A DNA stretch of 40,867 nucleotides from Candidatus Kapaibacterium sp. Lineage in GTDB: Bacteria; Bacteroidota; Ignavibacteria; Kapaibacteriales; UBA2268. The notes below the pieces were generated by a model. The model worked only from the letters and a program-made list of their open reading frames with translations. It had not been told where the DNA came from and did not search any database. This document shows, one piece after another, positions 3,760 through 8,903 of the stretch (positions within the stretch are counted from its first letter, which is position 1; each line of letters starts with the position of its first letter). The stretch is taken from assembly GCA_937936035.1 (NCBI GenBank), contig CALGXJ010000085.1, positions 1 through 40,867 on the forward strand, read 5' to 3'. The translations under genes were made by a program, and so were the position numbers.

Positions 3760-4340
3760 GTGAAGGATATATCAAATACAATACAATTTGCATAGGGAAC
3801 GAATATCCCGATGCAATTAATATAGTTGATTTGCAAGTATTGAGAAATGAATTAAAAATAAAAAACTTAATCGGAATGCTTCCGGGTGGGATTGGGTATG
3901 GCAACGTAAGCAAGAAATGGAACGATAAGTTCATCGTTAGCGGCTCGCAAACTGGTGGCGAAGCAATTCTCAGTTGTAGTGATTATTCAATTATTCACGA
4001 TTACGATATTTTGCAGAATACATTAGTTTATAGTGGGTTAAGACAACCTTCGTCTGAAACTATTACTCACATAGCAATTTATGAAGCACAACCTAATACA
4101 AAGTTTGTTGCTCACCTGCATAATAAAAGAATTTGGGAAAAATTAATCAAAGATGGAGCTAAAACTAATGGCGTTTCTGAGTATGGCACAGTGGGAATTG
4201 CGCTTGAAGCAAAAGATTATGTTTCAGGTTTTCCTTACGACGAAGGAATTTTTGCATTAAGTGGGCACGAAGATGGTGTAATTGCTTTTTCGAATGAACT
4301 TAAATCAATTATTGTTCTGATTAATAAACATATTAAGTAG
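3756..4340 (+). CDS. Class II aldolase/adducin-family protein
   Basis: GNVS, PSSETITHIAIYE, HLH and GHEDG metal-binding motifs. ATGA overlap with the upstream gene. Confidence 0.85.
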   Translation: MSEGYIKYNTICIGNEYPDAINIVDLQVLRNELKIKNLIGMLPGGIGYGNVSKKWNDKFIVSGSQTGGEAILSCSDYSIIHDYDILQNTLVYSGLRQPSSETITHIAIYEAQPNTKFVAHLHNKRIWEKLIKDGAKTNGVSEYGTVGIALEAKDYVSGFPYDEGIFALSGHEDGVIAFSNELKSIIVLINKHIK

Positions 4341-6915: not shown

Positions 6916-8903
6916 TATATTTTCTCAGAAACATCAATTAAATCTTCAATAATACCATCAAGTTTTGATAAATCGCTTCTAGCGTTTTCAGTATTTTTGA
7001 GAATAGTGCGAAAATCATCTACCACAGAATCGAACTTATTGGAAATATAAGCAAGACGCTCGTTGAATTTGGAGTATTCAAGCAACATTTTGGCTAAATC
7101 AGATTGGGTTGGGGTATTTTCCAGAACAATTTCAATAGTTTCAAGGTCGTTGCTACAAGCATAAATTGCGTTGCGTGCTTCGGTAGCAAGATAATAGATC
7201 TGATCCAGCGAATTAAGAAGATTTTCGGAAATTTTCTTAATTTCGTTCGATAATAATTCCATTTTGTTTGAACTTACTTTTTCAGCAAAAATTGAAGAAT
7301 TAACAGCAACAAGGTAAGTATGGTCTGATATTTTCTTTAGATTGTTTAATTCTGTGAATAATTTATCAAGTTTGTCGGAAAGAAGTTTGGCTTTGCTCTG
7401 AATAGTAATTGCTTTTTGTTTGACTTTTTCTCTTGCCGAATTATTGTCGAATTTAGAAGCAATATCGGCTGGGGTCTCCCATCGGGCAAGTTCGTTGGCG
7501 GTGGTAGCAAGTTGAGTGATTTTAACAGTCAGGCTGGTAATGTATTCTATCGAGGTATCGAAGGCAAGCGAGGCATTTGTCTTCAGTTGTCCAATTTTAT
7601 CGGCAACGTCAAGCAGGCGATTAATTTTAATTTCAATAAAATCCTGCAAATCAGATTTATCTTGTTGCAAATCGTAAATAGTTTTATTAATTCTATTTAG
7701 CGACTTAATAAGCTCATCGTTTGTGATTTGACCTTTGAATGATTTCTCGATAATCTCGTTTTCAAATTCACGGCTTTTGCCTGTGGCAACGTAGTCAAGG
7801 AATTTGATTAGTTCCCGCTCTTTTTCTTTCAATTTGAGAGCAAAATTGTCCGATGCTCTCACAGAATAAAAAACAAGCAACGCAATCACAAGAATTGCAA
7901 CAGCGAGAACCATTTTCAGACCATTTGCCCGTAATCCGGACGGCATAATTTTGGGCTGCTGCGGGAACTCTGACAAAATCAGCAAGTTCAATTTGCCTGA
8001 ATATACGGCTGAACGTCCCCAGTCATAGCTGCAAGTCTGAAAATCAATGTTACTAAGTTGCAAGCTATCAGCCCAGGCTAATGTGCTTTTGCGAGGCGAA
8101 TCCCCAAACGAAAGAAGAACATTTTTTGTGAATGCATCATAATAAGTGATATTGTAATTTATCTTGGAAATGTTGAAATCGATAAAGCCTGAAAGTTTGT
8201 TGAGAATGCCCATCATACCAAGAATTTTGCCTTGACGGTTGATTATCCGGCGGAATGTAACGGAATAAATATTATCGTTAATATTTTGCAAGATAGTGAA
8301 GCTCTGACCTTTGAATATTTTTTCGATAAGTAGAGCAGCTGAACGATTTTTTTTCGGACTAATCAAATTCAGATTGAAATTATCAGGGAGATTGTAGAAA
8401 GTGTGGTTTACAAGGAACATATCGCCGTCTTCGCTTATTCGTTGAAAGATAAGAAAATCTTTACCGGAAACAGATTTCAATGATTGGAGGAAAGGATGTA
8501 TTCTGTTTTTTTCGTTTCTGCTAAGATTAATATTGCCAAAGTACATAGATGGAATACTTTCGTAATACATTTTATCAAATGGAATATCTGGAACAAGTCG
8601 CCATCCGGCGCCTAATTTTAAATTTTCGTCTATTGCATAAGCAGTTTTTTCGAAATTGACAGAAACATTTTGTTCTATATATTTGCAAAGCAATTCAGCT
8701 GTTTTGTCGATTTGTTTCGATACTGCTGTCTGCTCAGAACTTTGATTGTCCGGTAAATTGCTCGAAAGGGCATAAATCCCGATTGCAACAATAATCCCGA
8801 AAAGAAATACGCCCAAAAAATTTGCTTTAAAAAGCGTTCGCAGAAAGTATTTTTTTTCGTCGAAATTCAATTTAATTTCGCTCCCTATATTATCAACAAA
8901 CAA
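6915..8903 (-). CDS. Methyl-accepting chemotaxis protein-like receptor (Cache-type sensor, degenerate signalling tip)
   Basis: Two TM helices flank a periplasmic region containing IFQRISEDGDM (Cache_3-Cache_2-like). The cytoplasmic coiled coil contains ISDHTYLVAVNSSIFAEK (cf. IADQTNLLSLNAAIEAEK). The start is uncertain (TTG 8903, or TTG 8870 after GGGAG). Confidence 0.75.
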   Translation of the reverse strand: MFVDNIGSEIKLNFDEKKYFLRTLFKANFLGVFLFGIIVAIGIYALSSNLPDNQSSEQTAVSKQIDKTAELLCKYIEQNVSVNFEKTAYAIDENLKLGAGWRLVPDIPFDKMYYESIPSMYFGNINLSRNEKNRIHPFLQSLKSVSGKDFLIFQRISEDGDMFLVNHTFYNLPDNFNLNLISPKKNRSAALLIEKIFKGQSFTILQNINDNIYSVTFRRIINRQGKILGMMGILNKLSGFIDFNISKINYNITYYDAFTKNVLLSFGDSPRKSTLAWADSLQLSNIDFQTCSYDWGRSAVYSGKLNLLILSEFPQQPKIMPSGLRANGLKMVLAVAILVIALLVFYSVRASDNFALKLKEKERELIKFLDYVATGKSREFENEIIEKSFKGQITNDELIKSLNRINKTIYDLQQDKSDLQDFIEIKINRLLDVADKIGQLKTNASLAFDTSIEYITSLTVKITQLATTANELARWETPADIASKFDNNSAREKVKQKAITIQSKAKLLSDKLDKLFTELNNLKKISDHTYLVAVNSSIFAEKVSSNKMELLSNEIKKISENLLNSLDQIYYLATEARNAIYACSNDLETIEIVLENTPTQSDLAKMLLEYSKFNERLAYISNKFDSVVDDFRTILKNTENARSDLSKLDGIIEDLIDVSEKI

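Follow-up and report, generated by a model that had tools for sequence, protein, structure and literature searches.

A conserved receptor, CheW and CheA-derived putative pseudokinase module in Candidatus Kapaibacterium

Chemosensory arrays are usually defined by the kinase activity of CheA, the P4 domain of which binds ATP in a GHKL fold marked by the N, G1, F and G2 boxes; the N-box Asn holds Mg-ATP, and the F and G2 boxes form the ATP lid. Described systems that resemble the locus reported here include: (i) the Wsp cluster, one of the alternative-cellular-function chemosensory systems, which encodes WspE with a receiver domain, WspR (REC-GGDEF), WspF (CheB) and WspC (CheR), (ii) the split kinase of Rhodobacter sphaeroides, in which CheA4 phosphorylates CheA3 in trans and CheA3 has a phosphorylatable P1 domain and no P3 or P4, (iii) Caulobacter DivL, which acts in signaling as a binding partner of DivK~P and CckA and has a largely intact ATP-binding domain, and (iv) CheWS of Treponema denticola. 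DivL is termed a pseudokinase in a review, while CheWS is a CheW protein fused to a catalytically inactive CheR-like sensor of S-adenosylmethionine (SAM) and is anchored in the array. The stretch of DNA analyzed here (the window, 40,867 nucleotides) is contig CALGXJ010000085.1 (C85) of the Candidatus Kapaibacterium sp. assembly GCA_937936035.1 (G000), which is 1.69 Mb in 198 contigs and rated 78% complete. The window carries three genes, for a dCache receptor, a CheW adaptor and a CheA-derived protein. With a probability of roughly 0.6, these genes are an intact, selected module that arose from a WspE-type ancestor, in which the kinase turned into a pseudokinase and the products serve in a non-phosphorelay signaling or scaffold complex.

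The three open reading frames (ORFs) are co-directional, in the order receptor, CheW and putative pseudokinase (hereafter pseudokinase), with lengths in amino acids (aa) as follows:

6915-8903, minus strand: dCache receptor ORF, 662 aa, TTG as first start
6397-6915, minus strand: CheW adaptor ORF, 172 aa, GTG start
4305-6416, minus strand: CheA-derived pseudokinase ORF, 703 aa, ATG as first start

The TAG stop of the receptor and the GTG start of CheW have one base (G) in common, at 6915, while the ATG of the pseudokinase at 6416 is 20 nucleotides (nt) upstream of the CheW TAA stop (6399-6397), an overlap of 6397-6416. These lengths and overlaps were given in a preliminary description of the window and are found again here, with minor corrections of two starts. 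The receptor orthologues start with MNFDEKKY, for which the window has an in-frame TTG at 8870 with GGGAG ahead of it, and the orthologous CheA-like proteins start with MSNIEQ, matched by another in-frame TTG at 6404. The true starts are likely these TTG codons, which would give a receptor of 651 aa and a pseudokinase of 699 aa and would reduce the overlap with CheW to 8 nt; the lengths are altered and nothing else. The GC content is 0.35-0.37 over the module region.

The pseudokinase is composed of the following domains:

Residues 4-132: Hpt1-like domain
Residues 152-287: Hpt2-like domain
Residues 335-435: P3 domain
Residues 436-573: P4 domain, lid-less
Residues 574-703: P5/CheW-like domain

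Pfam detects the CheW family at the C-terminus (residues 617-695, 4.6e-8), together with sub-threshold matches to HATPase_c (0.0067; 17.3 versus 26.4 bits) and Hpt (0.0078). Among 12 pseudokinase orthologues, which have 48-92% overall identity, the Hpt match recurs at E <= 0.1 in every member (best 2e-4). The profile of these 12 proteins aligns to the P3-P4-P5 region of Thermotoga maritima CheA among PDB sequences (3e-21), in two stretches. The AlphaFold2 (AF2) model, with a mean predicted local distance difference test score (pLDDT) of 86.8, shows P3 as long helices, P4 as an alpha/beta domain and P5 as a barrel, preceded by two helical bundles, and CheA structures (P3P4P5) rank first when the whole model is compared by Foldseek (3.2e-20). 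The Hpt identity of the two bundles is taken from the sequence alignments, the weak Pfam matches and a lead from the ESM Atlas, where the neighbors of the N-terminal 300 residues are Hpt clusters (score 0.92). Thus, the P3 dimerization helices and the C-terminal CheW-like P5 domain of CheA are present in the protein, while the phospho-accepting His of the HxxKG motif is missing and the set of P4 boxes is reduced to G1.

The missing motifs were tallied column by column over the 12 orthologues in MAFFT alignments of the family with six canonical CheA proteins (two of them from G000) and, later, with WspE-type hybrids. In both Hpt domains, Asn (N50 and N200) occupies the acceptor-His position of HxxKG in 12/12 orthologues; an assembly artefact is unlikely to account for this substitution, as all 12 independent assemblies agree. 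The N-box H-x-x-R-N-x-x-D-H-G is replaced by Q-L-L-R-[D/Y/F/H]-I-I-x-x-x, in which the Asn is not conserved. A deletion of 43-46 residues takes out the F and G2 boxes, and thus the ATP lid, in each of the 12 proteins: the MAFFT alignment has a gap of 43-44 columns at the same place where the alignment to the PDB sequence leaps from position 169 to 216 of the T. maritima CheA chain (about 46 residues), between the G1 and the last P4 strands. G1 (DDGxG) is the only P4 box left, kept in 11-12 of the 12. The receiver domain of the closest intact relatives is missing as well. With Asn at both acceptor-His positions, a variable residue in place of the N-box Asn and no ATP lid, the pseudokinase would be unable to autophosphorylate.

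The invariant columns are not spread evenly over the pseudokinase. The Hpt2-like domain is the most conserved (61/136 columns, or 45%, invariant down to 48% overall identity), followed by the P4-like (42/138) and Hpt1-like (38/129) domains, while P5 (19/127) and P3 (16/101) are the least conserved. A cluster of Cys and His residues, C19-x2-H22-C23-x5-C29, is noted in helix 1 of the Hpt1-like bundle (residues 19-29 of the pseudokinase P0003; 6351-6362 region of the window). C19, H22 and C23 are invariant in 12/12 orthologues and C29 is found in 10/12, and the cluster could bind a metal or serve as a redox site.

The ancestry of the pseudokinase is apparent from its wider family. An exhaustive profile search finds further full-length, single-stretch matches (P0032, P0033, P0069, P0099 and P0144) and one fragment (P0037). 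The lid deletion and a degenerate N-box are common to all six of these distant members, while the Cys/His cluster is missing from them. The last Gly of G1 is lost too in the three most distant lid-less members and in L047, a short contig that is the one locus recovered by a metagenome scan with an alignment of P0069, P0099 and P0144; a metagenome scan with P0032 gives no locus. In a tree of 59 sequences (fragment P0037 excluded), the 18 lid-less proteins fall on one side of a branch with a Shimodaira-Hasegawa-like approximate likelihood ratio (SH-aLRT) support of 100, in a group with long branches within it (0.4-1.65 changes per column). The tree was built by a quick method (LG+G4, midpoint root), with warnings of long branches and, for many rows, of an odd amino-acid composition. 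Both the profile search and the tree give hybrids of the WspE type as the nearest intact relatives (Hpt-HATPase-CheW-REC in 7/8 scanned), while the two canonical CheA proteins of G000 fall in another part of the tree. These relationships support, at the level of sequence, the descent of the pseudokinase from a WspE-type CheA-receiver hybrid. P0033, which branches first among the lid-less proteins, retains HxxKG in Hpt2 and matches Pfam Hpt above threshold (27.6 bits); this protein could represent an intermediate or else be phosphorylated in trans. The position of P0033 suggests that lid loss preceded His loss, an order that stays a suggestion only, as the tree is quick, midpoint-rooted and carries warnings.

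The assignment of the three genes to receptor, CheW and CheA-like families, the WspE-like ancestry and the erosion of the kinase motifs were each proposed in the preliminary description, and the Pfam, profile, fold and alignment results bear them out. The likeness to WspE-type hybrids extends to the co-linear layout Hpt-Hpt-(P3)-P4-P5 and to Hpt helix motifs such as DIDxLLRxND; the WspE-type protein P0035 (residues 15-779) aligns with the window protein at 23% identity. By contrast, the window protein is without the receiver, acceptor His, conserved N-box Asn and F/G2 lid of these hybrids. The module also differs from the Wsp system in its surroundings. As noted earlier for the adjacent genes, CheY, CheB and CheR are absent, here to a distance of about 11 kb, and no WspR-, WspF- or WspC-type gene is present within the same distance. 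Thus, neither the WspE receiver nor the partner genes that define a Wsp system are found in the cluster. The nearest receiver-domain genes (20258-20920 and 31294-31671) are 11 kb and 22 kb off, in unrelated contexts.

Similarly to the R. sphaeroides CheA3/CheA4 pair, the pseudokinase is a CheA paralogue that would be unable to self-phosphorylate, is retained and would enter a receptor complex through P5; unlike CheA3, it keeps P3 and a crippled P4 and has lost the acceptor His. DivL, the structure of which (4q20) is among the Foldseek matches of the pseudokinase model, likewise has a histidine-kinase fold without the acceptor His and acts through protein contacts, but is of the HisKA rather than the CheA class and has no receptor-CheW array context. 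CheWS is a further case of a chemotaxis enzyme fold reused non-catalytically in a chemoreceptor complex, but the reused domain is CheR-like, not a CheA P4 or Hpt domain, and the arrays are otherwise active with a working CheA. The combination of a full CheA scaffold, the loss of the His, N-box Asn and lid, and a dedicated receptor and CheW is found in none of the WspE, CheA3/CheA4, DivL and CheWS systems. No description of a CheA pseudokinase of this kind was found in searches of full-text literature outside subscription journals (main texts, supplements excluded). The family members are currently labeled 'CheW' or 'hypothetical' with CheW as the sole recorded domain, and for this reason domain-architecture censuses of chemotaxis systems miss them. 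If the proposed reading is true, array architecture can be selected for purposes beyond phosphorelay; the module, in addition, offers a natural 'kinase-off' core complex for structural study and a test case for the reuse of pseudo-Hpt domains.

The receptor has two hydrophobic segments (about 23-50 and 324-352) with a periplasmic domain of about 270 residues between them. This domain matches Pfam Cache_3-Cache_2 (3.9e-8) and models as an ordinary dCache-like sensor. By contrast, the cytoplasmic part is hard to place by sequence. Pfam MCPsignal, the signaling domain of methyl-accepting chemotaxis proteins (MCPs), has no match in the receptor at E <= 1 and is absent from three members of the receptor family scanned with Pfam and from the precomputed annotation of seven more. 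The family profile against PDB sequences returns coiled-coil noise with a phage tail fibre on top (3.6e-5) and no MCP. An hhalign comparison of the family with 30 canonical MCP tips gives a weak local match at the tip region alone (P 0.0089, probability 4.5%), in which the best-conserved stretch of the family lies on the canonical tip and two residues are missing at the turn. Given the noise of the PDB profile and the weakness of the tip match, the receptor was not assigned as a proven MCPsignal member. In the AF2 model (mean pLDDT 66.3), the cytoplasmic part forms long helices that turn at residues 544-545, and the best Foldseek matches of the model are full-length models of Bacillus subtilis McpB/McpC (3.3e-11), ahead of dCache sensor domains; the closest clusters in the ESM Atlas, a lead only, are all MCPsignal (score 0.95). 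The MCP methylation consensus, [ASTG][ASTG]xx[EQ][EQ]xx[ASTG][ASTG], is found in 0/10 members of the receptor family, as compared to 1-3 sites in each of the two canonical MCPs of G000. The receptor is a dCache transmembrane receptor with a very divergent MCP-like helical hairpin, in which neither the canonical tip sequence nor the methylation sites are left, and methylation-based adaptation appears to be missing from the module.

The CheW adaptor matches Pfam CheW just above threshold (1.5e-5; 25.1 bits versus a cut-off of 23.5) and is 74-83% identical to its orthologues. When the tip dimer of the receptor (residues 485-605) is modeled together with residues 40-172 of CheW, the score is 0.68, while the best control scores 0.00; the benchmark mark for this score is reached by 58/80 solved complexes and 2/110 mismatched pairs. 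The runs agree in at least 96% of contacts, with a partner pLDDT of at least 82, and the modeled CheW contacts are receptor residues 527-556, the usual tip position. The adaptor is thus modeled as a CheW protein, with an SH3-type double barrel on the receptor tip, although the high score might partly reflect likeness to already solved receptor-CheW complexes. The receptor had been called a 'pseudo-receptor' in the preliminary description, a term that is too strong for a protein with an ordinary dCache model and CheW modeled at the usual tip site; the losses concern the canonical tip sequence and methylation sites. The CheW gene is not present between the receptor and CheA-like genes in two loci. 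In L006 (5706-9838), a receptor-like gene is followed by the pseudokinase gene after a 54-bp gap with no CheW between, and in L047 (2-2594), a very distant metagenomic member, a transmembrane coiled-coil ORF directly precedes and overlaps the pseudokinase gene, again without CheW. A receptor and a pseudokinase may thus make up the minimal module.

The module had been thought to be under selection, as its genes are free of stops and frameshifts, and the ratios of nonsynonymous to synonymous substitution (dN/dS; pairwise Nei-Gojobori, window versus three syntenic loci) are those of purifying selection:

Pseudokinase: dN/dS 0.065-0.12
Receptor: dN/dS 0.11-0.16
CheW: dN/dS 0.06-0.18 (one pair saturated at synonymous sites)
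GT9 glycosyltransferase, neighbor: dN/dS 0.07-0.10
pfkB kinase, neighbor: dN/dS 0.02-0.04

The module is intact in 6/41 genomes of relatives, counting G000, with no stops or frameshifts. These carriers include all of the genus (4/4 of g1 plus G000, or 5/5) and the one genome of the sister genus g101 (1/1). The pseudokinase gene is found in 0/19 of the other genera of the family and in 0/200 other genomes of an even sample of the class, and a search with the distant-member profile finds the family in 0/400 genomes of an even sample of the phylum. Six loci in species-representative genomes, from assemblies labeled Ignavibacteria, Bacteroidetes or Candidatus Kapaibacterium, are likewise without stops or frameshifts. 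The order receptor, CheW and pseudokinase is common to the window and L002-L004. L007 has the receptor, CheW and the beginning of the CheA-like gene, while L005 has a cut CheW and the CheA-like gene on a short contig that ends before the receptor position. The L006 pseudokinase is 49% identical to that of the window. By these measures, the module genes are under purifying selection and are not relics.

In the favored explanation, the dCache receptor, CheW and P5 would still build a core complex, in which a periplasmic ligand bound by dCache would cause a conformational change down the helical hairpin. Output would pass through contacts between proteins, with no phosphotransfer. As the best-conserved part of the pseudokinase, the second pseudo-Hpt domain is proposed as the most likely output surface and would bind or release a hypothetical partner such as a receiver-domain protein. 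For any specific partner, the probability is much lower than for the reading as a whole. The non-phosphorelay role put forward in the preliminary description thus remains the most likely one, while its variant in which an active Wsp paralogue is decoyed or inhibited is unsupported (see below).

Several points weigh against this explanation. The likeness of the receptor to MCP signaling domains is weak by sequence statistics, and the pLDDT of its model is moderate. The invariant H22 of the 12 orthologues could serve as an unconventional acceptor, and the HxxKG of P0033 makes phosphotransfer in trans conceivable in at least the P0033 lineage. With G1 invariant, residual binding of an adenine nucleotide is possible. 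The loss of kinase activity is read from motifs, and the partner of the pseudo-Hpt domain is a presumed one.

A more specific version of the non-phosphorelay role, which is possible but doubtful, is a clade-wide switch in which phosphotransfer was abandoned and the Asn-bearing pseudo-Hpt domain docks a receiver protein, such as the flagellar CheY, to make an array that acts, under receptor control, as a CheY sink or phosphatase. The dCache input would decide whether the pseudo-Hpt domain sequesters the receiver protein or speeds its dephosphorylation through the Asn amide. The phosphatases CheZ, CheX and HisKA employ Gln, Asn or Thr for dephosphorylation. An aldolase-like gene beside the module (described below) may, in this version, relate to the ligand that is sensed.

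An unlikely alternative is that the pseudokinase acts as a decoy or modulator of ordinary arrays, taking P5 or CheW sites or forming heterodimers with an active CheA and so damping output. P3 and P5, the domains that such a role would use, are retained and confidently modeled, and G000 and its congeners carry two ordinary CheAs along with MCP, CheW, CheR and CheB genes on other contigs (G000 totals: one CheB, three CheR matches and one GGDEF match, all outside the module contig). However, P3 and P5 show the lowest conservation of all domains, and the pseudokinase is accompanied in the window and L002-L004 by a receptor and CheW of its own. The divergence of this receptor, with a tip unlike the canonical one and 2 residues shorter at the turn, and the dedicated partners therefore argue for an insulated complex. 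The decoy of an active Wsp paralogue, as first suggested, was rejected: no CheA-REC hybrid of the WspE type is found in G000 (78% complete) or in the congeners G204 (99%), G203 and G205, which include assemblies 99% and 92% complete. The P5 and receiver region of P0035 (residues 593-924) does match a CheW-like plus receiver stretch in G000 (contig C154, 3481-4942) and in G204 (contig C30, 31116-32111). In G204, the stretch sits within a 1448-aa open frame, which may be an unusual large CheV-like protein.

A split kinase, in which the pseudokinase is a substrate or sink phosphorylated in trans by an intact CheA of the same cell, is improbable. The two canonical CheAs of the genome could act as donors, P0033 keeps HxxKG in Hpt2, H22 is a His invariant in the 12 orthologues, and CheA architectures without HATPase_c can act with a partner as split kinases, as stated in a preprint. 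By contrast, both canonical acceptor positions are Asn in 12/12 orthologues and H22 is missing from all six distant members. The module, moreover, comes with a receptor and a CheW of its own instead of drawing on the canonical clusters for them, and the CheAs of the same genome are in a different part of the tree.

It is very unlikely that P4 is still an enzyme or nucleotide sensor that binds ATP or another adenine nucleotide in a non-canonical way for phosphoryl chemistry or energy sensing. While the retention of G1 and the rank of P4 as second most conserved domain are consistent with such a function, the F and G2 boxes and lid are deleted, the N-box Asn position is variable (D, Y, F, H), and the three most distant members and L047 are also without the last Gly of G1. 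Least credible is a functionless, decaying relic of a lost Wsp-like system, for which the eroded motifs, weak Pfam scores and narrow distribution (0/200 class and 0/400 phylum genomes sampled) would speak, but which was rejected because of the low dN/dS of all three genes (0.06-0.18), the conservation (intact frames in six genomes and six loci; 45% of Hpt2-like columns invariant) and the deep lid-less clade on one branch.

The operon is bounded on both sides by genes of the opposite strand:

3756-4340, plus strand: class II aldolase/adducin-family gene, convergent, downstream flank; Pfam Aldolase_II
9061-13407, plus strand: BcrAD/BadFG-DUF2229 gene, divergent, upstream flank, with glycosyltransferases beyond

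Scans for regulatory sites over 3600-9200 are uninformative, with 26 promoter-like sites versus 20.2 +/- 5.1 expected and three terminator-like sites versus 3.4 expected. The product of the upstream gene (1448 aa) has two BcrAD/BadFG-type ATPase domains fused with DUF2229, an arrangement of the coenzyme A (CoA)-enzyme activase type, and the gene keeps its synteny beside the module in L002-L004. A two-component cluster (29465-31671, minus strand) located 20 kb from the module encodes a PAS-HisKA-HATPase kinase, a 204-aa ORF without a Pfam family and a single-domain receiver.

The aldolase-like gene encodes a 194-aa protein (Pfam Aldolase_II, 4e-7), the best solved relative of which is an L-ribulose-5-phosphate 4-epimerase (0.0012). 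It converges on the pseudokinase gene, with 3' ends overlapping by 21-36 nt, and its position is kept in L002-L006, that is, in every Kapabacteria-type locus that has downstream sequence. The outer flanks of L006 differ (OsmC and TPR genes upstream and TrkA downstream), yet the aldolase-like gene stays; a role as companion of the module is possible. E101, H120, H122 and H171 are invariant in 5/5 sequences of the aldolase-like protein, a pattern which we take to be the ligand set of a Zn enzyme and which would fit an active enzyme of this type.

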